NCBI GenBank assembly: GCA_964291295.2
Contig: OZ219754.1
Coordinates: 2,976,001 to 3,040,000, forward strand
Length of the DNA: 64,000 nucleotides
Origin: an uncultured Candidatus Binatia bacterium
GTDB lineage: Bacteria > Desulfobacterota > Binatia > UBA9968 > JAJDTQ01
Reading direction: 5' to 3'
Shown here: in pieces, positions 1 through 16,641 of the stretch
How positions within the stretch are numbered: position 1 is the stretch's first letter
Layout: each line of letters opens with the position of its first letter
The notes under the pieces: generated by a model
Seen by the model: the letters and a program-made list of their open reading frames with translations, nothing else
The model's database searches: none
What the model was told of the DNA's origin: nothing
Made by a program: the position numbers and the translations under genes

Positions 1-1510
1 CGAGCCAGTCGCGCAGGCCGAGCGTCGAAAGACAGTCGTCGCGGTTGTAGTCCTGCACAACCCTTCGGCTCTCGCCGGTCAAGCCCCCGACATCGGCAAA
101 CTCCAGGCAAGCCTGGACGTGCGCCAGCGCGCGGTTGGCTTCAGGCAGAGCGATGCCGCGCCTGAATTCGTGAAACCGCTCGAGTTCCTTGAGCGAGTAA
201 CTTTCCACGCTGGCGCGAATGCCGCCGCGCACGACGCTGTGGAGATCCACCAGCAAACCCGCGCGAAGCATCCGGTCGATCTCTTCCTCCCGCGTGGCGT
301 ATCGGCCCATCAGACGCTTGAGCGCAGCCGGCTCATACGGAGCGAAGTGATAGACATGCATGTCCGGATAACGCTGCCAGCGCGCGATGATGCCGTCGAC
401 GAACTCCTCGAAGGCAATCTTCTCCTCCTCGCGAGTGAGCGACCACCGAGCCGTATAGTGCGCGGTGCCCTGTTCGCCCAACGCAACATGACCGAACAGA
501 TATTCGAGACCGCCCTCGCCAACGTAGGGATCTCCTTCCAGGTCGAAGAAGAGATCCCCGGCTGACGGTTCCGGCAACCGTGCCAGGCCATGTCCCGCCA
601 AGGGCTCGAGCGGCTCGTAAACGGGCATCCCCTCTTCGCGGGCGGCGACCTGTACCCGGGCCTGCTCGCGGATTCGCTCGTACGTATGGACCGCACCGCG
701 CTCCGGCTTCCACGTCAGCGGCAGCGGTTCGGCGGCAAGCGCCGTCACCGTGGTGATATCGCGCCGTCTCAACTCCCCGATCTGGAGACCGGACGTTCCG
801 GCAACGAGGGACAGATGGTCGTCGGCACGGCGGCGGGCATCGCAGACCCGCCGCCAGCGGCAGACTTCACAGTGCTGTCTGGGATCCGGACAGGTTTGCA
901 CACCCGCATCATCGACCACGGCCGCTTCCAGACTTCGTTTCACGAGCCGGTAATAGGCCAAGTAGTCGTTCGACCGAAAAACCTGCGGCTCGAAGTCCGA
1001 CCCCACGACATGCATGAACTCCGGGACCAGGCCCTGCACTTTCGCGACAAGATCCGTATAGAGACAGAGTTGCAGAACACTCCCGCCTTTGGTTTCCCGC
1101 GCGAGCTTGGTGTCCATCACTTCGTAGGACCATTCGCCAAGGTCGCTCGGCGTATCCACACGCCTCAGGATGTCTGCTCGACCGCCCCACCGCCCGTCCA
1201 GCAGAACGCCCCGGCAGATGACCTCCGCGCCGGCGCTCATGGCGTCCAGGGTCTCCCTGGCCTGCTTCTCTTCCAGCCCTGCACCCTCGATCCGCACGAT
1301 CTCGCGACCCACCCCTTCGAGATGGTCGCGAAAAGCCTGTTCATGCAGGTCGCCCCGCCTGCGGAGAATTTCGAGCAGCCGGTCCCGACGCTCTGGCTTC
1401 GAGCGGGCGCCTCTCGCAACCTCGATGTTCAGTTGGGTGAGGTGATTGCAACTCAAGTGGCCCGCCAGGTCGGTGGCACTCAAGTGGAGGATTCCCTTGT
1501 TGTCCCACAT
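1..1510 (-). CDS. TM0106-family RecB-like nuclease (N-terminal PD-(D/E)XK plus RNase H-like domain); 3' part runs off the window
   Basis: Not in the ORF track (no stop in window). Manual translation from ATG 1510: MWDNKGILHLSATDLAGHLSCNHL...RADILRRVDTPSDLGEWSYEVMDTKLARETKGGSVLQLCLY...HCEVCRWRRVC...GDLFFDLEGDPYVGEGGLEYLFG...HVYHFAPYEPAALKRL...VESYSLKELE, all typical of this family. Confidence 0.88.
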   Translation of the reverse strand, partial: MWDNKGILHLSATDLAGHLSCNHLTQLNIEVARGARSKPERRDRLLEILRRRGDLHEQAFRDHLEGVGREIVRIEGAGLEEKQARETLDAMSAGAEVICRGVLLDGRWGGRADILRRVDTPSDLGEWSYEVMDTKLARETKGGSVLQLCLYTDLVAKVQGLVPEFMHVVGSDFEPQVFRSNDYLAYYRLVKRSLEAAVVDDAGVQTCPDPRQHCEVCRWRRVCDARRRADDHLSLVAGTSGLQIGELRRRDITTVTALAAEPLPLTWKPERGAVHTYERIREQARVQVAAREEGMPVYEPLEPLAGHGLARLPEPSAGDLFFDLEGDPYVGEGGLEYLFGHVALGEQGTAHYTARWSLTREEEKIAFEEFVDGIIARWQRYPDMHVYHFAPYEPAALKRLMGRYATREEEIDRMLRAGLLVDLHSVVRGGIRASVESYSLKELERFHEFRRGIALPEANRALAHVQACLEFADVGGLTGESRRVVQDYNRDDCLSTLGLRDWL

Positions 1511-1665
1511 CAAGCGATTTCTCTTTCTCAATCCCCATGTCACCGCGGGTGCGAAACAGGGCGCATGGCAGGATGCATGGCACATGGCCTGAACCCGGGG
1601 ACAGCCACTCCGGGATCGGACCCGTCACCGGAGCCGCCCTGTTACGCAGTCGCGCGAAAGACAGC

Positions 1666-1815
1666 CTACCGCTTGCGACGGCGGTTGGGCCTCTGGGCCA
1701 GCGCCGAAGCGGCGGCAGTCTTTGCGGCCTTGCTGGACAGTGGGTTCCGCAGGACCTTGGAAGCGGCCGACGCGGCCTTCCTGCTGGCGACTTCGGTGTT
1801 TCTCTTGCGTTTCAT
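1666..1815 (-). CDS. Small basic Ala/Lys/Ser-rich protein (49 aa), hypothetical
   Basis: ATG 1815 to TAG 1666: MKRKRNTEVASRKAASAASKVLRNPLSSKAAKTAAASALAQRPNRRRKR; AAGGA-type SD upstream; below the ORF-track length cutoff. Confidence 0.75.
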   Translation of the reverse strand: MKRKRNTEVASRKAASAASKVLRNPLSSKAAKTAAASALAQRPNRRRKR

Positions 1816-1821
1816 GGCAAG

Positions 1822-1847
1822 GAGTTCCTTTCAAGAGTTCCTTTCAA
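1822..1847. repeat. 13-bp tandem duplication GAGTTCCTTTCAA x2
   Basis: Read directly; duplicates the SD-containing segment upstream of the 49-aa ORF. Confidence 0.85.
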
Positions 1848-1904
1848 GGTTGAGCTTGACCGGACCACGCCGGTCAGATAAGTAGATACACGTATTTGGC
1901 GCCA

Positions 1905-1925
1905 TGTCAATATGCTTTATTGACA
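1905..1925. promoter_or_regulatory. Perfect 8-bp inverted repeat TGTCAATA-TGCTT-TATTGACA: candidate WYL-regulator operator carrying TTGACA on both strands
   Basis: Seen in the AT-rich divergent intergenic region between the small ORF and the WYL gene; operator role is inferred. Confidence 0.65.
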
Positions 1926-1958
1926 GAATAAATCTTCTCTACGGACCGGAGAGCGAGT

Positions 1959-2861
1959 GTGATACAGGAACCTGACACCGGGAATGCGGGAGGCGAGGCC
2001 CGCCAGGCACTGAGGTGGGGCATTGAACAACGGCTCGAGTTCATCGATTTCCGCCTCTTTTGGGACGGCCGCATAAACCGTGGCGACATCACCGAAAAGT
2101 TCGGAATTTCCATTCCCCAAGCGTCAGCCGATCTCGCACGGTACCGGGAGATGGCGCCGGACAACCTCCGCTATGACCTGAGCCTCAAGTGCTATCTGGC
2201 AACGCAGGAGTACCGGCCGGTTTTCGAGGTCGAAGACGCAGGCCAGTATCTGGCACAACTGAAGTCTCTCGGGAGCGGCACGACGGCACGGGAAGAGACC
2301 TGGCTGGCCGAAACGCCCGAGTTCCGGATCGTGCCGACCCCAGGGAGGAATGTGGACAGTCGGAGCCTGAGGGCGGTCTTGCGCGGCATTCGAGATGGCC
2401 TCGCGTTCCACATTCGATATCAGTCGATGTCAAGACCGGAACCGCACTGGCGTTGGATCACGCCGCACGCGCTGGGTTTCGACGGCTTCCGGTGGCATGT
2501 GCGGGCCTTGTGCCACAACGATGATACCTTCAAGGATTTCGTGTTCGCCCGAATTTACGAAATCGGGGAATCCCGGCCCCATGCCATGGATTCAAGGGCC
2601 GACAAAGCTTGGTTCGATTCGGTGACAGTGATAGTCTCTCCCAACCCCGGTCTCTCGGAAAGCCAGTCGAACGCAGTCAAGATCGACTATGGCATGCCGG
2701 AAGGAGTACGGGCGATTACCCTCTCAGGTGCTCTCCTCTACTATTTCCTGAAGCACATGGGACTCCTTGTGGATGCGCAACGACCGCAGGACCAGCAGAT
2801 CGTGCTCGTGAATAAGGCAGAAGTGATGGCAGCGTTGAATCGATCGTGGGGAACGCGGTGA
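1959..2861 (+). CDS. WYL-domain transcriptional regulator (CapW/BrxR-like wHTH-WYL-WCX)
   Basis: LRWGIEQRLEFIDFRLFWDGRINRGDITEKFGISIPQASADLARY wHTH; YQSMSRP..WRWITPHALGFDGFRWHVRALC..FKDFVFARI WYL domain. Confidence 0.92.
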   Translation: MIQEPDTGNAGGEARQALRWGIEQRLEFIDFRLFWDGRINRGDITEKFGISIPQASADLARYREMAPDNLRYDLSLKCYLATQEYRPVFEVEDAGQYLAQLKSLGSGTTAREETWLAETPEFRIVPTPGRNVDSRSLRAVLRGIRDGLAFHIRYQSMSRPEPHWRWITPHALGFDGFRWHVRALCHNDDTFKDFVFARIYEIGESRPHAMDSRADKAWFDSVTVIVSPNPGLSESQSNAVKIDYGMPEGVRAITLSGALLYYFLKHMGLLVDAQRPQDQQIVLVNKAEVMAALNRSWGTR

Positions 2862-3075
2862 CCTGATATCCCGTGCCAGGAGTCTGCGCCGCGGAACAGG
2901 ATGAAAAGAGAAGGCGGGATGGCTTTGAAGGGGATGGATTGCGCAAGGAGACGAGAACATGATGATGGAAGGCAGAGTTGGATGCCGACGACGTTTCGTT
3001 CCTTCCGCATGAGCCGGCAATGATGGTGAAGGTACTGGCTTACATGATGCTCCGGCGCCGCGGGTGGAGAGATCA

Positions 3076-4638
3076 ATGACCCGACGCCGTCTTCCGATCG
3101 GAATCCAGGACTTCCGCACGATCCGGAGCGAGAACTTCCACTATGTCGACAAGACCTGCCTCATCCGGCAACTGGTGTATGAGGGGCGCCACTATTTCCT
3201 GTCCCGGCCACGCCGGTTCGGCAAGAGCCTGCTGCTCGACACGCTGCGGTCGCTGTTTGCCTGTCACGAACCCCTGTTCCGGGGACTGGACATCCACCCT
3301 CATTGGGACTGGTCCTCGCCGCATCCGGTGGTGCGGCTGAGCTTCGACGGGAAATACAATGAACCCGGGGATATCGAGCGCAACATCCTGACCCAACTCG
3401 AATTGATCGAACGCGATGCCGGTCTCCCGCCCGCTTCCTGCAGGACCGGGCCCGAACGCCTTCTCGATCTTCTCCATCGACTCCACGCCGCCGCCGGGCG
3501 GCCGGTGGCAGTGCTGGTGGACGAGTATGACAAGCCCATCCTCGACGTGCTCCACGACCCGGAGCTCGCGGCGGCCAACCGGGACTACCTGCGCGGCTTC
3601 TACGGCATCGTCAAGGGCAGCGCCGCACATGTCCGCTTCGTCTTCGTCACCGGTGTCAGCATGTTCTCCAAGGTCAGCCTGTTCTCGGGGCTCAACAATC
3701 TGAAGGACATCAGCCTTGATCCGCGCTACGCCACCATCTGCGGCTACCGGGACGAGGATCTGGATCGGGTCTTCGGCGCCGAGATGGCCGGGCTGGACCG
3801 CGATGCAATCCGCACCTGGTACGACGGCTATCACTGGCGGGGCGGGGAGCGGGTCTACAATCCCTACGACGTGCTTCTGCTGCTCGACAGCCGCGAGTTC
3901 CGTCCGTACTGGTTCGAGACCGGCTCTCCGAACTTCCTGTTCCGGATGCTGATGGAGAAGTCCGTGAGCCCGATGGAACTGGAGGGCCGGCTGGCGGACA
4001 TGTCGTTGATCTCCAAGTTCGATGTGGGCGATATCGACATCGAGGCGCTGCTCTTCCAGACCGGCTGTCTGACCATTGCGGAGGAAGAGAGGCTGGGCCA
4101 CCGGACCCTGTACCGGCTGGACTATCCCAATCTGGAGGTTCGGCTGAGCTTGAACGACGAGTTGCTTGCCTGGCTGGGCAAGAAGGGGGCCGAGCCGCTG
4201 GAGCGGGGCCGGGAGTTCTGCGCGCTGCTGGAGGCCGGCGACTTCACGGGCTTCGGCGAGAGGCTCCGCGCCTGGCTGGCGGGGATCCCCTACCAGTGGC
4301 ATGCCAAGGGCGATCTGGCGCGCTACGAGGCCTGGTACGCGAGCCTTCTCTACATGTGCCTGCGCTCCATCGGAGCGGACCTCCGGGTGGAAGAGGCCTC
4401 GCATCATGGCCGCGCGGACACGGTGTTGCTTCTCGGCGGGCAGGTCTTCGTGCTGGAGTTCAAGATGGCCGAAGGCGAAGATGACAGCGCTGCCGCACTG
4501 GATGCGGCGCTCGCGCAGATGCGCGAGCGGGGCTACGCGGAGAAGTACCGCGACCACGACGGACCGGTCCATTTGATCGGCGTGGCTTGCGGGCGCGAGG
4601 CGCGGAACCTTCTCGAAGTCCGCGCCGAGCCCGCATGA
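3076..4638 (+). CDS. AAA-ATPase-like protein with C-terminal PD-(D/E)XK nuclease domain (DUF1703 type)
   Basis: LPIGIQDF..YVDKT; SRPRRFGKS Walker A; VLVDEYDKP Walker B; GRAD..VLEFK..ALAQMRERGYAEKY. Confidence 0.92.
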   Translation: MTRRRLPIGIQDFRTIRSENFHYVDKTCLIRQLVYEGRHYFLSRPRRFGKSLLLDTLRSLFACHEPLFRGLDIHPHWDWSSPHPVVRLSFDGKYNEPGDIERNILTQLELIERDAGLPPASCRTGPERLLDLLHRLHAAAGRPVAVLVDEYDKPILDVLHDPELAAANRDYLRGFYGIVKGSAAHVRFVFVTGVSMFSKVSLFSGLNNLKDISLDPRYATICGYRDEDLDRVFGAEMAGLDRDAIRTWYDGYHWRGGERVYNPYDVLLLLDSREFRPYWFETGSPNFLFRMLMEKSVSPMELEGRLADMSLISKFDVGDIDIEALLFQTGCLTIAEEERLGHRTLYRLDYPNLEVRLSLNDELLAWLGKKGAEPLERGREFCALLEAGDFTGFGERLRAWLAGIPYQWHAKGDLARYEAWYASLLYMCLRSIGADLRVEEASHHGRADTVLLLGGQVFVLEFKMAEGEDDSAAALDAALAQMRERGYAEKYRDHDGPVHLIGVACGREARNLLEVRAEPA

Positions 4639-4809: not shown

Positions 4810-4843
4810 ATGCCTTGACATGCCTTGACATGCCTTGACATGC
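4810..4843. repeat. 10-bp tandem repeat ATGCCTTGAC x3.4
   Basis: Read directly; each unit yields TTGACA (4815, 4825, 4835). Confidence 0.9.
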
Positions 4844-4868: not shown

Positions 4869-5147
4869 ATGATACGGAGTTTCAGGAGCCGGGCGCTGCG
4901 GCGCTTCATGGAGAGCGGCGATGCGCGGCGCATCCACCCGGAGCACCGAGAGACCGTGCGCGACATCCTGGTGCGTCTCAATGCGTCCGCGGCCCCGGAC
5001 GACATGGCCCTGTCGGGGTTTCGACTGCACCCGCTCAAGGGCATGTATGCCGGCTTCTGGGCGGTGACGGTGCGCGCCAACTGGCGGGTGATCTTCCGGT
5101 TCGAGGACGGCCACACCGCCGATGTCGACTATCTGGACTACCATCAG
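4869..5147 (+). CDS. higB: HigB (RelE/ParE-superfamily) toxin; expected stop after ...DYLDYH is CAG, so the frame runs on to 5888
   Basis: [49 protein letters not shown] is a complete HigB; next codon 5145-5147 is CAG. Confidence 0.85.
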
Positions 5148-5160
5148 GGAGGCAAGGCCC

Positions 5161-5448
5161 ATGCTGATGCACGATCCGCCCCACCCGGGCGCCTTCATCC
5201 GGCGCCAGTGCCTCGAACCCCTCGGCCTGACGGTGACCGAGGCTGCGAAGGGGCTCGCGGTCTCGCGCAACACGCTCTCGCTTCTGCTCAACGGCCGCCT
5301 CGGCATCTCGCCGGAGATGGCGATCCGGCTGTCGGAGGCCTTCGGCGGAAGCCCCGAAAGCTGGTTGACCCAGCAGATGCAGTACGACCTCTGGCATGCA
5401 CAGCAGAGCCGCAACCCGGTCGAGGTTCGCAAATTTGCGGCGACATGA
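5161..5448 (+). CDS. higA: HigA addiction-module antitoxin (XRE HTH)
   Basis: [71 protein letters not shown]; GGAGG SD upstream. Confidence 0.93.
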
Positions 5449-5589
5449 CCGGCGCGCCGCCCTGGACCTGCTCCAGTACCTCGTCGTCCGCGCCAAGGTC
5501 TTCGCCGAGTTGTTGCAGAACAGCCGCCGCGCCCGCGTCCACAGGATCCGTATTGCCGTTGAACACTCCGCTCCGCGCCGAAGAGATCC

Positions 5590-5933
5590 GTTCATCACCG
5601 TGCTCTCTTGCCAACTCGTCCAGGCCATCCGCACTCGCCTGCGTCAGGCACACGAGAACGCCAGCTGGACCACGCTGCGCCGCGTCGTCCAAGGACAGCA
5701 GGCATCACCGGCACATGCCGGCTCACCACCACGTGCCGGCGGGCGCACCCTGCACATGCGCAGGGCGACCCGAGCCGAACCCACCCGGCAGGCCGTCTAC
5801 AAAGCCGTGGACATCAATCCCGTTCCCGGAGGAACCCGCGCGCAGTCAATCCTCATGTAGTGCCACTCGCCGCTTTTGCCCACCATAACCATATGATATG
5901 AAAAGAAATTGTACAGAGGCTGGTAAAGTTGGG
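5590..5933 (+). mobile_element. IS1634-family remnant (transposase C-terminus plus right end)
   Basis: FITVLSCQLVQAIRTRLR..SWTTLRR..GRTLHMRRATRAEP..VYKAVDINPVPGG resembles IS1634 transposase C-termini, with an internal frame disruption; AT-rich tail ending AAAGTTGGG. Confidence 0.65.
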
Positions 5934-6686: not shown

Positions 6687-9070
6687 TCAGAATTGCTTCT
6701 TCCATGCGGACCGGACCGTCCATTCCGAGGGCGAGTCCGTCCGGTGGCCGGGCTGCCGGCTCCAGACGGACTCGAGGGTGAGCACACCGCCAGCCAGGGA
6801 GTGGTCGATCCGCGCGCTCAAGTCAAGTTGGCGGCCGGTCGGTGCAAGCTCGACGCCGACGGTCTCGCCGGCCACCCGTCCGTCAACGGTACGGCCTGTG
6901 GGCAGATGGAGGAGCGCAACCCCATCCGTGACGCGGATCGGCTGCGCCACGGCGAAGCGCACGGTTGCGCCGGCGGGAGAGAGGATGTGGGCGGCGGCCA
7001 CGCGAAAGGCGCTGGTGCGCAATGTGGAGATATCACGGATGAACGGCCCGCCGATGGAGTCCGGACGCACGGCGCCCAGTTCTCCCTGAGCCGTCAGTCG
7101 CCATCCCGGAGGTCCGTCCGCCTCCAGCCGGGCCGAGAGAAAAGCGGTGTGGCCCGCGAGCCGCCCGAAGGCTCCGGAAGCGGAACTGCCCAGCAGGCTG
7201 TCCGGCTCTGTGAGCCAGCCGGCCTGCAGGGCGACCGCCGACAGGTCGGCGGGCCGCCATTGCGCGGCGAAGCCCGAAAGGGGCTGGCCCCCTCTCTCCC
7301 GCGGTCGCTGGAAGAAGGCGGCGGACCAGTCCCAGGGCGTGGAGAGGTCGAAGCGGGCGGCTCCGTCGGCAAGCGCAAGATGGCCGGGAAATCGGCCGGG
7401 GGGCCGGGCATGCAGTCTCCATGCGCCGTCCTCCGGCCGGGGCTTCCCGGAATCGGCGAAAAGCCGGTCCGGTAGAACGGGCGCGGCGCGTTGCGGGGGC
7501 GGCCGCACAAAGTCGCCGGCCGCGAACCAGAAGGGCGCGCCGGGTTCGTCGAAGGCGGCGACCTCGCGCGGCCCGAGAGCGCGGATGAAGCTGTCCCCCA
7601 GGGCTCGGCCCGGACGTAGCGCCGAGCCCGCGACACCGGCCCGTGCGTCCGGCTGCGCCACGGTCCCGCCGGGTCGTATGAAAGTGGCCGTACCCCACGG
7701 CGCCCAGGTCCAGGAGGCCCTGACCATAGGTGGAGCGGTCGGCATAAATGCCCGTCTTGTTGGCCGTGGCAAACAGGCGGCTCACCAGTTCGGTATTGGA
7801 GAGTTGGCCCCGGAAGATCTGCTTCATGATGGCCAGTCCCCCACTGACCATCGGCGCGGCATAGGACGTTCCACTCACAGTCCTCCAGTTTCGAACACCG
7901 CTCACTCCAAGAAGGTTCCGAAATGGGCGGCCCGGACATACGTACCCGGTGCGGCGATACAGTAATCGGCGGTGATGCCGCAGCGATTGGAGTAATCCGC
8001 AATGGCGCCATCCTCCTCCATGGCAGCGACCGCGATCGAATGACCTCGCAACTCCGCGATGCGAGAGGGCAGACCGGCCCAGAACTTGGGGGAAGAGCCA
8101 ATGACCTTGCCATTGACGCATCGTGCAGCCCCGACTTCAGCCGCGTTGCAGGCGCGTCCATGGTTATTGCCTGCGCTCCAGACAAGGATTGTTTTTTCCG
8201 GGCGTTCTCTTGCGCAAGGACGGAGATGGTTCTGGCGTAATTCCTGCTTATCTGGTTCTTTCTGTAATCTTCAATGTTTCCGTCAAATCGCATGCTGACG
8301 TTCAGGATATCTATCTGCCCTCCCAAAGCTGCCTTGAACAGCTCGGAATCATCGAGGTCCCTGCTGTTCAACTGTTTGAGCGAAGCGGGTTGATAAGAGG
8401 GGGGTCCACTGCTGGACGGGATAGCGAACATGGCGATGTCGGCGCCCCAGGCCACTCCTTAATGGGCCTCGGGATCGGATACCCGGTCGCCGGCTGCAAT
8501 GCTGGCGACCCGGGTTCCGCGGGAGTATTCCTTGGCGCTGGTCTCGTCCGTCGCTCCGTTCAAGAACGTCTCGCTGACATCCGTGTCCGAGAAAGAGGGG
8601 TGGTCCTTGTCGATGCCGGAATCGACAAAGCCAAGGGTGACGCCTTCCCCGGGCTCCGCATCGCCTCCCTTGAGGAGGCGCAGATGGGCATGGGCATGGT
8701 CGGCGCCAATGGTTTCCAGGCCCCATTGATTTCGGAAACCCGCTTCGCTCCTGTAATCGCGGGACCATTCCTTCGCCTTCAGGAGAAATGCCTCCCTTGC
8801 GATGCAGCCAAGTTCAAGGGAAGGGTGGGTGGCAACGGTGTCGGCCGGACAGGATGACGGCGCCCGCGACTCGTCGTCCACGGGATCCGGTGTTTGGGCG
8901 GGCAGCCCGTCGTCCACAGGGTCCGGTGTACCGCCGGACGGACCGCCGCCCGCGGAGCCCCCTCCCCCGCCTCCGCAGCCCGCCAGAGCGAGGGTCGCGC
9001 ACAGGGCCAAGGAGCAGACAATCCCGATCCTCCTCGGCGCCCGACGATTCTCGCGCCTGCCGCGACTCAT
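6687..9070 (-). pseudogene. S8 subtilase lipoprotein with C-terminal beta-barrel-like domain, disrupted
   Basis: Lipobox LAGC; GFVDSGID (Asp); RGTRVASIAAG where HGT is expected; TAA at 8459-8461; SAGN, GTSYAAPMVSG and the C-terminal ..WKKQF lie in different frames. Confidence 0.8.
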
Positions 9071-11689: not shown

Positions 11690-12330
11690 ACGGCAATGCC
11701 GTGTTCGACGACCCAGGCGAACCGCTTCTCGCCATCCACGAGTGTGATGGGAGCGGCTCCCGCGGCGAAGGCGGCGTCCTGAGTGCCCTTCGAGAACCGG
11801 GAAGTCCTGAAGATAGTTCCACGAACTGCTTCGAAGCGGTACAGGGAACCTCGAAGCGCGTCGAGATCCTTGCGCTGTATCGGGCGGCGGTGGCGCCTGG
11901 CTTGGACTACTTCCCGGATCGAGGTGATACCAACCTTGATGTCGGCGACGACATCGGCTCCGCCATTACCTGACCGGGATGTGGCTTCCACGTTCCGGTA
12001 ATCCATTTCCCCGACAGTCGTTTGATCAGGTGTTCAACTGCGAACGGTTCCATGTCCTGAAGCTGATCATGCAGGCTATCGCGCACCGTTTGGGCGTGCT
12101 GCGGTACCAGTGTCCACACTTGGTTGTGGTTTCCAGCTACGGTATTGCCTTCGTTTTTGTTCTCCTGGAGGTAACGCAAGCCGTTGGGTGTCGCAGAGTA
12201 TAATCTCCCCCTTCGCTCAATCAGGCCACGAGATTGACGAGACGCCGGCCCATCGTGTCCTTGATCACGGACTCGGCGCGGATTGAAGAGCTGCGATTGA
12301 GGTAGTCTGCCCACTGGTCGAGTAGACCTC
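11690..12330 (-). pseudogene. mrr: Mrr-family type IV restriction endonuclease, 5'-truncated and frameshifted
   Basis: LQDMEPFAVEHLIKRL then a frameshift into MDYRNVEATSRSGNGGADVVADIKVGITSIREVVQARRH..GTIFRTSRFSKG..APITLVDGE; DGGxD is NGGAD and QAK is QAR. Confidence 0.75.
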
Positions 12331-12342
12331 CACGTAGGCCAG

Positions 12343-12512
12343 GAGCCTGTGCCGCAGAAAGTTTTCGTGGGACAGAGATCCACCAGAGTCCCACTTGGCG
12401 CCCAATTCATGTCCAATAATGGGACAAGGCTACACGTTTCTGGCATTTTGGACGAGAATCTGGCCATGCTCTCCCACCGGTCACATCCCGGAGCGTCCTG
12501 CAGCACAGGCTC
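12343..12512. mobile_element. 170-bp MITE-like element with terminal inverted repeats
   Basis: GAGCCTGTGCCGCAG...CTGCAGCACAGGCTC (14/15 IR), flanked by CCAG and CTAG; no transposase inside. Confidence 0.7.
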
Positions 12513-13673
12513 CTAGGGCCACAGGGTGTTATCGGCGAGTGCCTGTTGCAACCGGTCGGTGGACCAGACGTCGATCCCGTCCCCGGTCCGGAACGACCGC
12601 TTGCCGCCGTAGGCCAGCACGCGCCGCGCGATTCCCGGAAGCTCCGCGATCGCGCGCAATCCCGGCAGCATTCCGGTGTGATAGCGCGGCTGCGACTTGA
12701 CCTCGATCGCCGCCAGCTCGCCGCCCCGGCGCAGCAGAAAATCGACCTCGGTGCGGTTCGCCGGGTGCGGCGCCCAGTAGTGCATCTCGTCGAACAGCCC
12801 ACCCTGCTCACCGTGCGCCCGCAGGAGGTGCAGGACCCAGCCTTCCAGGAGCGCGCCGCGTTCCTCGGGTGCGATCGGCCCGTGGAGCCTCTTCACCGCG
12901 CGGACCAGGCCGGGATCGACCCAGTAGAGCTTCGGATGGCCGCGCTCGCGCGTCCGCAGCCGCGGCTGGAACGCGGGCAGGCGGAACGCGAGCAGCGTGT
13001 CCTCGAGGATGTCCAGATAGCCCTGCACGGTGGTGCGCGCGACACCGCAGTCGCGCGCGATGCCGGATATGTTCACAACCTGGCCATGACAAAGCGCGGC
13101 GATCGGCAGGAAGCGCGCGAACCCCGGGAGATTCCGGACAAGACCCTCGGCCCGGACCTCCTCGCGGAGATAGAGCCGGACATAGCTCTCGAGAACCGCC
13201 CGCCGTTCCTCGGCGGCCCAGACCAGGGGGATGGTCCCGGTATCGAGGGCGGTATCAAGGTCGAAGTCGCCGCCGAGCTCGGCCGGGGTCAGGGGGTGCA
13301 TGGTCTTGTGCAGCGCCCGGCCAGCGAGCAGATTGACGCCGGCCGCCTTGAGCTTTCGCGCGCTCGATCCGAGCAGGGCGAAGTTGAGACGCCGATCCTC
13401 GATATGCCGGTGCACTTCGTTGAGCAGATTGGGCAGGCGCTGGATCTCGTCCACCACCACCCAGCTCCCGGGAGGCACGGACTGGAGATCCGCGGCGAAG
13501 AGGGACGGATCGGCGAGGTAGTCCTGGTAGCGGGCCTCGTCGAGCAGGTCGATACGCGGCGCATCGGGAAACTGCGCTCGCGCCCAGCTGCTCTTGCCGG
13601 CCCCGCGGACGCCGAGCAGAAAGAAGCTCTGCGCGGGCGGGCGGATCAGCCGGGGATAGGTCGTTCCCGCCAT
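12513..13673 (-). CDS. AAA_14 ATP-binding protein with DUF4143 and C-terminal PD-(D/E)XK-like motif
   Basis: GVRGAGKS; VVVDEIQR; LGSSARKLK..NLLAGRA; HPKLYWVDPG; EVDFLL..AIEVK. Confidence 0.92.
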   Translation of the reverse strand: MAGTTYPRLIRPPAQSFFLLGVRGAGKSSWARAQFPDAPRIDLLDEARYQDYLADPSLFAADLQSVPPGSWVVVDEIQRLPNLLNEVHRHIEDRRLNFALLGSSARKLKAAGVNLLAGRALHKTMHPLTPAELGGDFDLDTALDTGTIPLVWAAEERRAVLESYVRLYLREEVRAEGLVRNLPGFARFLPIAALCHGQVVNISGIARDCGVARTTVQGYLDILEDTLLAFRLPAFQPRLRTRERGHPKLYWVDPGLVRAVKRLHGPIAPEERGALLEGWVLHLLRAHGEQGGLFDEMHYWAPHPANRTEVDFLLRRGGELAAIEVKSQPRYHTGMLPGLRAIAELPGIARRVLAYGGKRSFRTGDGIDVWSTDRLQQALADNTLWP

Positions 13674-13854
13674 GGTGCCATCATATTTCGAAGAAAGATG
13701 ACGATATATTGTCAGTCGGGCATCGGCGAGTCAAGGACGCGGCGCAAGCACTTCTTGCCGGTAACCCATTCCTCCCGGCTGCGCGCCGCAACGAATGCCA
13801 CAGCCGCTGCGCCTGGCTCGGCGAGATGGAGGAGCGGCTGCGCGGCGAGCGGGG

Positions 13855-14520
13855 TCAAAGGGCTGTGGGTACGGCCAGGATCTTCGTCTGGAGCCAGTTC
13901 GACAAATCCTCGAGGCTCCGGGAACTGATCTCGTGTCCCATGTCGTATTCGCGGTACTCCACCGGAACCTGCAGCTTCTCGAGCAGCGTCAGGGAATGTC
14001 TGGCCCGCGCCAGCTCGATGAGTTCGTCGCGCTTGCCGTGCTGCACCAGGGTGGGCAGCGTGTCCACCCGCTGGGCCACGCCCATCGCCGACAGCGTACC
14101 CTCCCGCAGCCAGGAACTCAGGATGCACATGCCCGCGAAGCGGTCCGGCTGGGAAAGCCCGAGGCTGCAGGCCATGCCGCCGCCCTGGCTGAAGCCCAGC
14201 AGCACGAGCCTGCGGCGGTCCAGCGGATATCGCTCGTGGCATTGGTCCACGAACGTCCGCAGCCGGTCCCGTGCGGCAAGGAAGGCGCCGGTATCGATGT
14301 CGCCGCCCAATGACATGGGGAACCAGGCGTAACCGGTCACGCCCGGGCCCAACGGCACTTCCAGGGGGGCCTGCGGGCAAAGGAACCGGAACGCCCCGCC
14401 GCACAGGTTGGGGGCCAGACCCAGCAGGTCGGCGGCGTTGGCGCCTCGACCGTGCAGGGCCAAGATGGTCGGATGGGGCCCCTCTCCTTCTGGTTCGTAC
14501 ATGCAGTGCAGCAGTTCCAT
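13855..14520 (-). CDS. Phospholipase/carboxylesterase (alpha/beta hydrolase)
   Basis: LHGRGAN, PQAP, GFSQGG, HGKRDELI, MGHEI. Confidence 0.9.
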   Translation of the reverse strand: MELLHCMYEPEGEGPHPTILALHGRGANAADLLGLAPNLCGGAFRFLCPQAPLEVPLGPGVTGYAWFPMSLGGDIDTGAFLAARDRLRTFVDQCHERYPLDRRRLVLLGFSQGGGMACSLGLSQPDRFAGMCILSSWLREGTLSAMGVAQRVDTLPTLVQHGKRDELIELARARHSLTLLEKLQVPVEYREYDMGHEISSRSLEDLSNWLQTKILAVPTAL

Positions 14521-14522
14521 GA

Positions 14523-15470
14523 CTATTCCATCGCCGCCCTGAGATCCTTGACGTAGTCTTCGATAGCGGCATCCATGGTGTATTGCGGTTCCCAGCCCAG
14601 GTATTGCCTGGCCCGCGATATGTCCAGCGGCACGCTGACCGCCACATCCGGCGGCCTTCCGGGAATCACTTCCACCTCCAGCCCGGGGAATTGCCGCTCC
14701 ACGGCAGCCACGAGGTCGTCGAAGGTCGTCACCTGTCCGACGCCGATGTTGAAGGTGGTCTTCTCGGGCACCGGCACCGTCGCCGCCAGGTCCACGGCAC
14801 GCCCCATGTCCTTGGCGTAGACGTACTCGAAGGTCATGGTCTGGGCTTGGGGGATCCTCGCCACCTCGCCGCGGATCCCCGCCTCCAGCAGCATCTGCAC
14901 CTTCTCGCCGCCCCCGGAGCCGCCCCAGAAGTGGCCGAGTCCGTAGGCATTGGCCAGCCGCAGAGTCAACAACTCGAAACCGTAGAGGCGCTGGTACGCT
15001 TCCGCCAGCAGCTCCTTGGTGGCCTTGGAGTTGCCGTAGCCGGCCCCCGGGCCCCGCGGCATCTCCTCGTGGGTGGGGTGGTCCCCGGCGCGCCGCCGAT
15101 CATAGGCGCCGAAGGTGCTGATCAGAACGAAGCGCTTCACACCCGTGAGCCGGGCCGCCTCAAGCACGTTGAGGGTTCCCTCCACGTTGATCTGGAGCCC
15201 GCTGTAGAGGGACTCCACCACGCGCCCGCCAATGAGTCCGGCGGTGTGCACCACCGTCTCCGGCCGGTAGCGCTGCATGGTCTCCGTCAGCGCCGGCAGG
15301 TCCCGGATATCCTTTTGCACCACCTCCACGTCCGCCGTCCCCAGCTTCCGGTGCAGGTATTCGGTGCGCGGCATGAAGTCATAGAAGACCAGCTTCTCGC
15401 GGCGCTTCAGCGCGCACTGCGCAAAGGATGTACCCACCAGCCCCACTCCCGTCACAAGCGTCGTTCCCAT
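14523..15470 (-). CDS. NAD-dependent epimerase/dehydratase
   Basis: LVTGVGLVG, VVHTAG, YGNSK (YxxxK), FNIG. Confidence 0.9.
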   Translation of the reverse strand: MGTTLVTGVGLVGTSFAQCALKRREKLVFYDFMPRTEYLHRKLGTADVEVVQKDIRDLPALTETMQRYRPETVVHTAGLIGGRVVESLYSGLQINVEGTLNVLEAARLTGVKRFVLISTFGAYDRRRAGDHPTHEEMPRGPGAGYGNSKATKELLAEAYQRLYGFELLTLRLANAYGLGHFWGGSGGGEKVQMLLEAGIRGEVARIPQAQTMTFEYVYAKDMGRAVDLAATVPVPEKTTFNIGVGQVTTFDDLVAAVERQFPGLEVEVIPGRPPDVAVSVPLDISRARQYLGWEPQYTMDAAIEDYVKDLRAAME

Positions 15471-15561
15471 GATCGTCCAACTCCTCTCCTTGCAGCCGTT
15501 CTCCCGCCGGGCGCGGCCCCGGGGCCGTTATCGGGCGGCCGTTCCAGGCCCGTTGCGGAGC

Positions 15562-16641
15562 TTATCCCCGCAACCGCGGCATCACGCTGTCCGCCAGCAT
15601 GTGGATCGCCTCTTCGTAGTCCGGGCCGAGCTTGGCGAAGGCGATCTCGTCGTAGCCCATCTCACCGGCCTGCCTGGCGATGTCCACGATCTGATCGGCC
15701 ACCTCGTCCGGACGCCCGGCAACGTAGTAGTTGAGGACCATCTCCTCGGTCACCCGGGCCGCAGCCTCCTCCACGGTGGCGCCTCTGGCGAACGCCTCCT
15801 TGAGTTCCAGCACCCTTTCCCGCTCCACGTTGAGGCGGCGGTATTCCTCGACGGTGAACTGGAGCGCTTCCCATTGCAGGATTGAATGGGACACCTGACG
15901 CTTGGGAAACTCGATGGCCGCCTCACGGTCCCGCGACACCGACACATTGAGTTCGACCATCTTGCGCAGGCTCTTTCCGGGATCGACGCTGCGGGCGCCG
16001 GCCTCGGCCATCGCATGCATCTCCTTCAAGCGGCCCGCGCGCAGCATGGGGATGAAGGTCCCCGAACTGATGAGCCCGTCCATGACCTGGCCCCCCATGC
16101 GCAGCGACCGGGGGCCGTTGCCGCCGGAATAGATCGCCACCGGGGATGCGGGCTTGAAGGCAAGTTCGAAGCCTCGAGCCGGATTCAGGTGGAAATATTC
16201 GCAGAGCACGGGGAACTCGCCATACGGAACGCGCGCACCCTCAAGGGCGCGGCGTGTAAAGACCGCCAGCTCCCGCACCAGCGCCAGGGGCCTGTGCACG
16301 GAAACGTTCTGCGGCGTCTGCGCCAGGTCGCCGCGGGCGATCCCGAAGCCGATCTCCCGCCCTTCGGCCAGCTCGGACAGGGTTGCCAGCGAGTCCACCA
16401 CCTCGATGGGATGGTGCAGGTACGGCACCAGGACCGCGGTGCCGATGCCGATGGGAACGCGTGCGGCGATGGCGGCAAGCAGCACCACCTGACTCCGGTA
16501 GCGCGCATTGTCGTTGACCCAGATGCGTTCGAACCCCCGCCGCTGAGCCAACCCGGCCAACTCCACGAGCTGATTCGCGGTGTAACGGTTGGCCAGGTGG
16601 GTCACGAACTGGAGCCCGAGCTTGCCTTCGAATGCCGCCAT
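15562..16641 (-). CDS. LLM-class flavin/F420-dependent oxidoreductase (Mer-like)
   Basis: GFERIWVND, IGTAVLVPY..HP, ATLSELAEGR..GIARG, GPRSLRMGGQVMDG. Confidence 0.85.
   Translation of the reverse strand: MAAFEGKLGLQFVTHLANRYTANQLVELAGLAQRRGFERIWVNDNARYRSQVVLLAAIAARVPIGIGTAVLVPYLHHPIEVVDSLATLSELAEGREIGFGIARGDLAQTPQNVSVHRPLALVRELAVFTRRALEGARVPYGEFPVLCEYFHLNPARGFELAFKPASPVAIYSGGNGPRSLRMGGQVMDGLISSGTFIPMLRAGRLKEMHAMAEAGARSVDPGKSLRKMVELNVSVSRDREAAIEFPKRQVSHSILQWEALQFTVEEYRRLNVERERVLELKEAFARGATVEEAAARVTEEMVLNYYVAGRPDEVADQIVDIARQAGEMGYDEIAFAKLGPDYEEAIHMLADSVMPRLRG

Follow-up and report, generated by a model that had tools for sequence, protein, structure and literature searches.

Bacterial immune and stress operons can be switched on after DNA damage by adjoining controllers, among which the available portion of one report places CapW/BrxR, CapH with CapP, and CapK with CapS (PMC13373217). 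In the accessible text of PMC9122588, CapW is described as a homodimer, encoded on the strand opposite to its operon and upstream of it, that binds imperfect palindromes of 19-24 bp overlapping the promoter. Binding of single-stranded DNA (ssDNA) to the WYL domain causes CapW to leave its operator, as reported for CapW of E. coli upec-117 in the accessible part of PMC11662680. Protection by CBASS did not need CapW-dependent induction (available text of PMC9122588); control by CapW therefore does not in itself prove a role in defence.

This study describes a CapW-type locus from an uncultured Candidatus Binatia bacterium (GenBank assembly GCA_964291295.2, contig OZ219754.1). The window, the whole stretch of DNA that was analysed, comprises 64,000 nucleotides (positions 2,976,001 to 3,040,000). 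At its left end, a capW gene is divergent from genes for a 49-aa micro-protein and for a COG2251/TM0106 nuclease-helicase. The original prediction had read this trio as a conserved, unnamed defence unit. Its account of the parts, of the divergent geometry and of a helicase holds, whereas a conserved three-gene unit does not; the recurring unit comprises capW, the micro-protein gene and the promoter/operator region that they share, followed by cargo that varies. The CapW-type switch is thus a known element, and what is new is its candidate COG2251 cargo and a previously undescribed small component.

The CapW repressor and its control region

The protein encoded on the plus strand at 1959..2861 has 300 aa, contains a WYL domain (E 1.2e-9) and matches over its full length three CapW proteins in the PDB (7tb6 from S. 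maltophilia, 5.5e-68; 9c5g, 9.3e-62; 7tb5, 7.4e-56) and two BrxR proteins (7t8k, 5.8e-42; 7qfz, 5.8e-26), in agreement with its predicted type. Residues 16-290 align to residues 7-284 of 7tb6. Precomputed annotation of the protein and its homologues gave PF26109, PF13280 and PF26107, and the protein has the three-domain wHTH-WYL-WCX architecture of about 300 aa that aligns along its entire length with solved CapW/BrxR members. Judged by these sequence features, the gene encodes a full-length CapW/BrxR-family repressor. CapW proteins of this subfamily occurred in 6 of the 401 class genomes and in none of the 26 genus-mates.

The gene arrangement is likewise of the CapW type, with capW on the plus strand, the basic 49-aa ORF and the TM0106-family nuclease gene divergent from it on the minus strand as originally predicted, and 143 bp between the two transcription directions. 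This shared control region (1816..1958) contains conserved boxes and has a G+C content of 47%, compared with 67% for the window. It bears out the expected AT-rich palindromic character with two perfect-arm inverted repeats: a 20-bp palindrome, TGACCGG-N6-CCGGTCA (1857..1876), which is a candidate CapW operator, and a 21-bp palindrome, TGTCAATA-N5-TATTGACA (1905..1925), also a candidate operator. Both lengths fall within the range reported for CapW operators. A promoter for the micro-protein gene was assigned by eye from the conserved alignment, with a proposed -35 element, TTGACA (1905-1910, minus strand), in the left arm of the 21-bp palindrome and, after a spacer of 16 nt, a proposed -10 element, TATCTA (1883-1888, minus strand). 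The 20-bp palindrome covers the likely leftward transcription start, immediately downstream of the proposed -10 element, and is retained in part in L045 and L046, the closest loci. The architecture of the region, with three boxes (AAACTATATTGACAT, one resembling CGTATAGTT, and CGGTCAA), is common to 11 aligned CapW/micro-protein loci in which CapW identity ranges from 44 to 100%. A consensus scan of 1400-2100 called no sigma-70-like promoter, and a terminator scan of the same interval returned a single terminator-like site, on the plus strand only, with none on the minus strand over 1666-1510.

A conserved micro-protein companion

The first gene on the minus strand (1666..1815) encodes a strongly basic, Ala/Ser-rich micro-protein with 16 K/R and one E among its 49 residues. 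Database searches recovered 127 homologues of similar length and 1534 representative clusters at E <= 0.001, phrog_5079 matched with an E-value of 2.9e-13, and a search of its own genome gave 1.5e-23. A core domain of about 47 aa (EVTSKRAASAASKVLRNPxSSKAAKTAAASALTQRPN) places the protein in a phrog_5079-like family. Across 48 aligned sequences, 14 columns are invariant and 15 nearly so; over 2124 sequence pairs, third codon positions hold 58.8% of the differences, and 43313 synonymous codon differences stand against 24462 non-synonymous ones. The gene is under purifying selection, and the homologues, clusters and codon-position bias together identify the micro-ORF as a real gene rather than a chance reading frame.

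An AlphaFold2 model (mean pLDDT 76.7) predicts two helices, at residues 12-23 and 29-40, with basic tails. Searches of Pfam, NCBIfam and PADLOC returned nothing for the micro-protein, a PDB profile search yielded only designed helical repeats and S14 (E >= 0.012), and an Atlas search only unnamed clusters of 46-47 aa. Phage and plasmid collections searched by tblastn gave no match. This result does not argue for absence: the low-complexity filter had very probably masked the Ala/Ser/Lys-rich query, given that 41 viral loci emerged from pattern scans.

The census comprises 80 metagenome loci and these 41 viral loci, and the family is present in phages; tandem forms occur, and in some cases the micro-protein is the C-terminal part of a fusion with an XRE or HicB-like DNA-binding (antitoxin HTH) protein. 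Genes of the XRE/M78-like type lie divergently upstream of the micro-protein gene in 13 of the 80 metagenome loci, 7 of them with a pair, and in 3 of the 41 viral loci, 2 of them with a pair; some of these pairs, together with the micro-protein gene, precede DUF6791-ThiF/DUF6527 (Bub-like) operons. Temperate-phage regions with XRE/ImmA-like genes carry the micro-protein as well. About 100 of the 121 loci have neither regulator type divergently upstream, 21 of the 121 having less than 1 kb of upstream sequence. Within the class, 10 of 401 genomes encode the micro-protein; five further loci from this sample, two of them in genus-mates, showed no WYL and no XRE/M78-like neighbour in local searches. 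The micro-protein is specific neither to COG2251 cargo nor to WYL regulators.

The micro-protein is a widespread, previously undescribed companion of CapW-type switches. Its gene is not mentioned in the available text of PMC9122588, PMC11662680, PMC9122601, PMC13373217 and 10.1101/2024.11.21.623953; the locus lists published with the papers on CapW, BrxR and Bub may include the micro-ORF or cargo of the COG2251 type.

The nuclease-helicase

The minus-strand stretch at 1..1585 holds the 5' part (first 528 codons; open-ended ORF, 2-1585) of a gene for a COG2251/TM0106 nuclease-exonuclease-SF1B helicase. The gene extends about 1.9 kb past the left edge of the window, and the entire ORF has 1156 codons (G000:C1:2974115-2977585; L002:12115-15585, minus strand). 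TIGR03491 (TM0106 family) matches with E 4.5e-77 and 260 bits, above the curated cut-off of 97.45, which makes the enzyme a family member. Pfam detected RNase_H_2 (7.8e-15) and PDDEXK_1 (4.2e-5) in the part within the window; the full ORF contains PDDEXK_1, RNase_H_2, AAA_11 and AAA_12 (1.5e-22), and the SF1 helicase domains at its end, AAA_11/AAA_12, are those that the original prediction had expected beyond the edge. The likely start codon is the ATG at 1510 (M26); homologues are 1131-1135 aa long, with alignments that begin around residue 20-33.

Invariance or near-invariance among 21 homologues extends to the Cas4-like nuclease residues D138, E155, D158-T159-K160 and Q172/Y176, the four cysteines C46/C239/C242/C248, the exonuclease residues D348/E350, and, in the helicase, the Walker A sequence GPPGAGKT (778-785), D888/E889 and motifs V and VI. 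By this motif content, comprising Cas4-like PD-(D/E)XK motifs with four cysteines, an RNase-H-like domain and C-terminal SF1 helicase motifs, the enzyme can be described as a Cas4-like Fe-S PD-(D/E)XK nuclease joined to an RNase-H-like 3'-5' exonuclease and a Upf1/Dna2-type SF1B helicase, and the conservation of its catalytic residues makes it look active. In a PDB sequence search the helicase part matched DNA2, Upf1, Sen1 and IGHMBP2, and the nuclease part gave no match. The COG2251/TM0106 family has at least 7573 database proteins at E <= 1e-50 (8000 scored), and our literature search for the family found no experimental function. One bacterial family has the enzyme almost as a core gene, in 36 of 55 genomes, with conserved flanking genes (7 and 6 loci), and there it looks housekeeping.

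A recurrent cassette with variable cargo

Cargo was compared across ten other loci with a divergent capW and micro-protein gene, nine of which could be judged; in the tenth (L132) the contig ends and the cargo is unreadable. The genes behind the cassette encode a CBASS cyclase with a SAVED-2TM effector (L045), an E2-E1-JAB fusion with a 394-aa protein (L046), an OLD/GajA-like ATPase-nuclease (L057 and L138), an 884-887-aa PD-(D/E)XK protein with an AddA/UvrD-like protein of 1131 to about 1150 aa (L072, L120, L125 and L139, the AddA/UvrD-like gene of L120 being interrupted by the contig end), or an SF2 helicase (L114). The cassette's cargo elsewhere is mostly of the defence type, and in five of the nine loci it is a helicase or nuclease, the same functional class as the window enzyme. 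Throughout all 11 CapW-linked loci, the micro-protein is the sole constant product downstream of the regulator.

The combination with the COG2251/TM0106 enzyme was found in this genome alone among those sampled. No WYL or micro-protein gene lies near the nuclease-helicase at any of 46 loci elsewhere, for which the flank was mostly 1.5 kb and at least three (L029, L030 and L044) had almost no upstream DNA; no nuclease-helicase occurs at 124 micro-protein loci; and none of the three genomes holding the closest CapW relatives has the trio. A weak proxy for co-location, the longest contig per cluster among the listed close homologues, paired CapW with the micro-protein and never with the enzyme. 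The trio is therefore a one-off combination and not a conserved defence system.

The G+C content of the cassette (0.58-0.61) is lower than that of its flanks (0.64-0.72), which, together with the rarity of both CapW and the micro-protein in class genomes, points to a foreign origin. A search of 16 kb for the borders of the island returned no att-like direct repeats. The only tRNA call near the island, a tRNA-Ser at 7149-7224, lies within long ORFs and is probably false for that reason.

Proposed mechanism and alternative explanations

We lean towards an interpretation in which the locus unites a portable controller cassette with a Dna2-like enzyme, which thereby becomes inducible by damage or infection. 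The cassette consists of the gene for a CapW-family ssDNA-sensing repressor, a divergent promoter/operator, and the micro-protein gene, which would be the first to be transcribed. A CapW dimer bound to the two palindromes of about 20 bp, over the -35 element and the transcription start, would keep the leftward promoter shut. CapW would be released once its WYL domain binds ssDNA arising from DNA damage, from the induction of a prophage or from phage replication, and the micro-protein gene, followed through read-through by the nuclease-helicase gene, would be transcribed. The nuclease-helicase, as the presumed regulated cargo, would then unwind and degrade DNA ends, in defence or in repair. On this last choice the balance is close: that the enzyme is a defence-like or stress-induced processor of DNA ends, as opposed to a plain repair enzyme, seems to us slightly short of an even proposition.

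The main competitor, possible in our estimate but rather unlikely, is that the genes are chance neighbours. The cassette would then regulate nothing beyond itself and the micro-protein gene, whether because earlier cargo was lost or because there never was any, and the enzyme would serve independently in repair or replication restart from its own transcript. Spacing speaks for this view, since 155 nt separate the stop codon of the micro-protein gene from the likely start of the enzyme (80 nt if the first ATG is taken), which leaves room for a separate promoter and compares with 1-20 nt in five other cassette loci; yet gaps of 84 and 170 nt precede clear cargo in two more, and both genes are on the same strand with no terminator-like site in between. 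The 166-nt stretch between the two genes has no special RNA structure (z-score 0.21). Similarly, the absence of WYL or micro-protein neighbours at the 46 enzyme loci and the near-core status of the enzyme with stable flanks in one family fit an independent enzyme, as does the difference in G+C between the enzyme gene (0.63) and capW (0.59), which may reflect separate arrival. The copy in the window, however, looks imported and not like the resident copy of the genus, because it is only 59-60% identical to the copies of genus-mates, lacks their flanks and has an EamA neighbour that their enzyme loci do not have. The helicase or nuclease cargo at five of the nine judgeable cassette loci also argues against coincidence.

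The two remaining alternatives concern what the functional unit is. Adjacency and suitable orientation in this genome, and the absence of a matching named PADLOC system, would fit the originally predicted three-gene system of WYL protein, micro-protein and TM0106 nuclease-helicase, but given the counts of 0/46, 0/124 and 0/3 and a co-location signal that links CapW to the micro-protein and never to the enzyme, we consider that system extremely improbable. The micro-protein could instead be the payload, a DNA-damage-induced peptide that binds nucleic acid or modulates the regulator, with the downstream genes as interchangeable passengers. Its constancy in all 11 CapW-linked loci, its position behind divergent XRE/M78-like genes in 13/80 metagenome and 3/41 viral loci (pairs in 7 and 2), its extremely conserved core and its fusions to XRE and HicB-like proteins are in keeping with such a role; structure and family searches gave no lead, neither regulator lies divergently upstream at about 100 of the 121 loci in the census (21 with less than 1 kb upstream), and we regard this explanation as improbable.

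Returning to the cassette interpretation, a broader version of it can be offered only tentatively, as one that we doubt more than we believe. The micro-protein, a basic protein of 47-49 aa with a predicted helical hairpin, would be an unrecognised, widespread module and the first product induced in DNA-damage-responsive cassettes. It would target nucleic acid or the damage signal itself; binding of ssDNA or of DNA ends and adjustment of derepression are possible modes of action. Its regulators would be of the CapW/BrxR and XRE/ImmA types (CapH/CapP-like), its cargo would include CBASS, OLD, AddA-like, Bub-like and other operons, and the COG2251 enzyme would be one more recruited inducible immune or stress effector.

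As candidate cargo of CapW, the COG2251/TM0106 nuclease-exonuclease-helicase gains a lead to its function, namely that it acts when ssDNA accumulates. In many unrelated cassettes a tiny, extremely conserved protein is encoded between the controller and its cargo. Should it have a part in signalling, present models of such switches miss a component; should it have none, it is still, among unannotated small proteins associated with defence loci, one of the more widespread.

Comparison with known systems

The closest relatives of the locus are those controlled by CapW (S. maltophilia C11, E. coli upec-117 as well as P. aeruginosa PA17) and by BrxR of BREX, with which it shares the wHTH-WYL-WCX protein over its full length and the divergent layout with palindromes of about 20 bp in the putative common promoter region. 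Close relatives of the window CapW precede CBASS in L045 and L055 and adjoin BrxA-like genes in L072 and L114. The window differs in that its cargo is a COG2251 nuclease-helicase instead of a named immune system, and in that a conserved micro-protein gene, not mentioned for CapW/BrxR loci in the available texts, stands between promoter and cargo. With CapH and CapP, an XRE repressor and an ImmA/IrrE-type peptidase, the connection is the micro-protein itself, which follows XRE/M78-like genes at 16 loci, in 9 as pairs that are candidates only for CapH/CapP identity; the window has no XRE/peptidase pair.

Among defence systems, the original prediction had recognised no named one, and the locus indeed has no complete match in PADLOC-DB v2: no signature matched over its full length together with partner genes of Mokosh, Dpd or Druantia. 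Mokosh has the Upf1-like helicase core in common with the enzyme (PADLOC MkoA, 9.6e-37 over residues 952-1117), but only helicase-domain pieces of Mokosh MkoA/MkoC and Dpd DpdJ match, and a PLD nuclease is absent both as a partner and as a domain. The N-terminal two thirds of the enzyme matched no PADLOC defence model except DruK, at 0.0058. Nhi, which we take to be a single- or two-protein nuclease/helicase defence system, presumably offers a comparable case; the hits included no Nhi model.

The enzyme itself is a member of COG2251/TIGR03491, the "TM0106 family RecB-like putative nuclease", for which Majorek et al. 2014 (PMC3985635, available part) described the PD-(D/E)XK (DUF83), RNase-H-like and tandem AAA architecture; for this family, the link to a CapW cassette is seen only in the window. 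Like Dna2 and AddAB/RecBCD, it joins an Fe-S-type PD-(D/E)XK nuclease and an SF1 helicase in one chain, and AddA-like cargo lies behind the same cassette in four loci. Unlike all of these, the window enzyme has an additional RNase-H-like exonuclease domain and, in contrast to the two- or three-subunit complexes of AddAB and RecBCD, it is a single polypeptide.

A CapW-type regulator and its control region

Within the window, positions 2976001-3040000 of the contig, all three open reading frames of the original prediction were recovered in place: the WYL gene capW on the plus strand at 1959-2861 and, on the minus strand, a micro-protein gene at 1666-1815 and a TM0106-family nuclease frame at 2-1585. 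The 300-aa WYL protein is aligned over its whole length by solved CapW structures (7tb6, 5.5e-68; 9c5g, 9.3e-62; 7tb5, 7.4e-56) and by BrxR structures (7t8k, 5.8e-42; 7qfz, 5.8e-26), so that its predicted CapW/BrxR type holds; these alignments place it in the wHTH-WYL-WCX repressor family, a known kind of regulator. CapW is described as a homodimer that binds imperfect palindromes of 19-24 bp overlapping the promoter and whose gene lies upstream of the operon, transcribed from the other strand (PMC9122588), and as being released by the single-stranded DNA (ssDNA) formed after DNA damage (PMC11662680). The subfamily is rare in the class, occurring in 6 of 401 genomes and in none of 26 genus-mates. 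In one extracted locus (L047, 5849-7001), an insert of ~1.15 kb splits a 76%-identical capW homologue between alignment residues ~105 and 96.

The 143-bp control region (1816-1958) has a G+C content of 47%, compared with 67% for the window, and the AT-rich palindrome noted there proved to be two, of 20 and 21 bp, each with perfect arms. Alignment with the control regions of ten other CapW/micro-protein loci revealed three common boxes: box 1, AAACTATATTGACAT, containing a perfect TTGACA that faces the micro-protein gene; box 2, CGTATAGTT-like, 15-17 nt beyond box 1; and box 3, CGGTCAA. From these shared boxes, we read a putative -35 element at 1905-1910 and a putative -10 element (TATCTA) at 1883-1888, both on the minus strand. 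This leftward promoter is our reading of the alignment; a consensus promoter scan called no promoter in the control region. One candidate-operator palindrome covers the putative -35 element and the other the likely start site. The leader of the micro-protein gene also carries two direct copies of GAGTTCCTTTCAAG (1821-1848), which are not present in the ten other aligned loci.

A widespread micro-protein family

The micro-protein (49 aa, with 16 K/R residues and one E) is the product of a real, widespread small gene. Homologues of comparable length number 127, at 57-87% identity (one outlier, 27%), and phrog_5079 matches it (E 2.9e-13); a profile built from 48 members retrieved 1534 representative clusters at E <= 0.001, including 261 at <= 1e-10. 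The core EVTSKRAASAASKVLRNPxSSKAAKTAAASALTQRPN is nearly invariant. Across 2124 non-independent ORF pairs, 58.8% of nucleotide differences fall at third codon positions, with 43313 synonymous versus 24462 non-synonymous codon differences. An AlphaFold2 model (mean pLDDT 76.7) comprises helices at 12-23 and 29-40 with basic tails. Searches of families, structures and literature returned no function.

In many relatives the domain is repeated in tandem, two or three times. The domain also occurs as two C-terminal repeats behind an XRE-type HTH (homologues P0333 and P0351) or a HicB-like antitoxin (P0377), and joined to a protein anchored by a membrane helix (P0316). In 12 loci (L068, L090, L099, L102, L107, L151, L153, L156, L158, L173, L179 and L180), a convergent gene encoding 92-97 aa with an HExxH-like motif, without a Pfam match, shares 14-17 nt with the 3' end of the micro-protein gene; integrase and XRE/ImmA-like genes are often present there.

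A divergent CapW gene lies upstream in 7 of 80 metagenome loci (at least 1 kb of upstream sequence in 60), and divergent XRE/ImmA-like cluster genes in 13, as pairs in 7 of these. The corresponding counts among 41 viral loci are 0 and 3, and neither regulator type was seen at many other loci, viral above all. Pfam assignments for 97 divergent upstream neighbours were HTH_3 (13), Peptidase_M78 (9), WYL (7) and BrxA (2).

A cassette with changing cargo

The cassette, comprising capW, the control region and the micro-protein gene, recurs with the same divergent arrangement in L045 and L046 (CapW identity 76-77%) and in L057, L072, L114, L120, L125, L132, L138 and L139 (44-50%), the two coding starts lying 90-131 bp apart. 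The cargo behind it varies: a CBASS CD-NTase with SAVED-2TM in L045; a 394-aa protein with an E2-E1-JAB fusion in L046; OLD/GajA-like ATPase-nucleases in L057 and L138; and, in L072, L120, L125 and L139, an operon for an 884-887-aa PD-(D/E)XK protein with an AddA/UvrD-like protein of 1131 to ~1150 aa (incomplete in L120). An SF2 helicase comes next in L072 and L139, and a helicase of that type is the only cargo in L114 before the contig ends. The recurrent three-gene operon of L072 (8161-16134) and L139 (4560-12539), encoding PD-(D/E)XK (~885 aa), AddA/UvrD-like (~1131 aa) and SF2 ResIII/DEAD (~630-680 aa) proteins, may be a helicase-nuclease module for defence or repair that has no name yet.

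The COG2251 enzyme

The frame at 2-1585, open at the window edge, scores 260 bits (cut-off 97.45; E 4.5e-77) against TIGR03491, "TM0106 family RecB-like putative nuclease", and also matches RNase_H_2 and PDDEXK_1. Reading leftward past the window extends it to 1156 codons (minus strand, 12115-15585 of locus L002), ending in AAA_11/AAA_12/AAA_30 domains; the C-terminal SF1 helicase anticipated beyond the edge is thus present. The ATG at 1510 (M26), which follows a purine-rich stretch, is the likelier start, because close homologues are 1131-1135 aa long and align from about residue 20-33. Among 21 homologues (36-83% identity), the RecB/Cas4 nuclease residues (D138, E155, D158-T159-K160, Q172, Y176), four cysteines in the Cas4 pattern (C46, C239, C242, C248), the acidic D348/E350 pair of the exonuclease, both Walker motifs (A, 778-785; B, D888 and E889) and later helicase motifs are invariant or nearly so. 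No experimental study came to light in literature searches for TM0106, TIGR03491, PF13482 and COG2251.

The enzyme was matched (E <= 1e-40) in 60 of the 401 sampled class genomes, a tally that includes one unpublished genome (G393), patchily in most families and in up to 36 of 55 genomes in one; within this tally, the window's genus accounts for 4 of 26. Full-length copies in three genus-mates are merely 59-60% identical and fragments occur in two more, all in surroundings unlike the window's, and the copy in the window looks imported. In the order holding the closest CapW relative, 15 of 301 sampled genomes carry the enzyme. Neighbours are conserved in a clade of ~37% identity (7 and 6 loci), and none were found conserved in one of ~50%; part of the family looks like housekeeping genes. 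To the left, the enzyme gene adjoins EamA transporter and amidohydrolase genes.

A stand-alone paralogue, 25-28% identical to enzyme residues 112-520, occurs in genus-mates (L016, 17227-18384; L017, 17028-18185; L018, 159-1316; L019, 1839-2996). It is the best match of its kind in 18 of 24 searched and lies 6-16 kb from the enzyme orthologue or fragments in five carrying both; the same query found none in the window's own genome.

Right-hand neighbours

Directly right of capW lies a plus-strand gene (3064-4638) whose 524-aa product combines AAA-ATPase_like (2.6e-56) and PDDEXK_9 (7.6e-15) domains; PADLOC gave it no match of note. A HigB-like ORF follows (4869-5888; 4mct_B, 1.5e-15), which has no stop at the usual HigB end and continues to 339 codons, with a HigA-like antitoxin at 5164-5448 (2icp_A, 1e-12). 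Three tandem copies of ATGCCTTGACATGC, spaced by 10 bp, just upstream of the HigB-like gene (window 4810-4843; L181, 10810-10843) are probably its promoter/operator. G+C falls to 0.58-0.61 over the cassette, and searches around it found no island borders. A tRNA-Ser(gct) called by ARAGORN (7149-7224, minus strand) lies inside long G+C-rich ORFs, is probably false and is unusable as a border.

Cassette and enzyme: a unit or chance neighbours

The observations behind the original prediction are confirmed and its interpretation is supported in part: the regulator type stands, the three genes as one system do not. Tblastn or profile searches found no WYL or micro-protein gene in the flanks of 46 enzyme places (0/46; mostly 1.5 kb of flank, 9.7-20 kb in five, almost no upstream DNA in at least three). 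The enzyme was absent from 124 micro-protein loci (80 metagenome, 41 viral contig and 3 genome) and from the three genomes with the closest CapW relatives found among genome contigs. Among the matches listed, micro-protein and CapW clusters have longest contigs of the same size (e.g., 1826715, 65718, 31208, 11678, 7770 and 6035) and CapW and enzyme clusters have none, a weak proxy for co-location. The three genes do not form a conserved "system". Since the micro-protein stands behind CapW, XRE/ImmA-like genes or neither, and in none of the 124 loci with the enzyme, it is not the nuclease's partner; it is often the first gene behind damage-responsive regulators.

We slightly favor a model in which the controller cassette has been joined to the COG2251 enzyme. 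CapW would keep the leftward promoter shut until ssDNA opens it, allowing expression of the micro-protein and, through read-through, of the nuclease-exonuclease-helicase, which would process DNA ends. Less likely, the enzyme is a chance neighbour of the cassette. Against its being real cargo, the 155-nt gap before it exceeds the 1-20 nt of five other cassette loci, its G+C content is unlike that of capW, part of its family looks housekeeping-like and no second cassette-enzyme example was found. Two other loci are also gapped (84 and 170 nt). In favour of real cargo, the enzyme shares the strand of the micro-protein gene, a terminator scan found no terminator-like site between them, five of the nine other loci that can be judged have a helicase or nuclease behind the cassette, and the copy looks imported. 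Within the cassette-cargo model, a defence-like role as opposed to repair falls just short of an even call.

Comparison with known systems

The helicase part of the enzyme is alike by sequence to Upf1, Sen1, IGHMBP2 and DNA2, and the COG2251 domain combination is already described (Majorek et al. 2014, PMC3985635). As for BREX, a BrxA-like gene follows the WYL gene on the same strand in L072 and L114, the classical position of BrxR; as for CBASS, a CapW relative in L055, without a micro-protein gene, precedes a type II system. The cargo of the micro-protein loci L100, L108 and L110 (85-aa, DUF6791-ThiF and DUF6527 proteins, one of each) has the domains of Bub operons, described as often linked to CapW or CapH+CapP (10.1101/2024.11.21.623953, PMC13373217); L097 has ThiF-family and DUF6527-like genes only. 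The parts of the CapW, BrxR, CapK and Bub papers covered here mention neither COG2251 cargo nor the micro-protein. Set against these systems, a COG2251 enzyme as cassette cargo would be new, as is the recurrent micro-protein.
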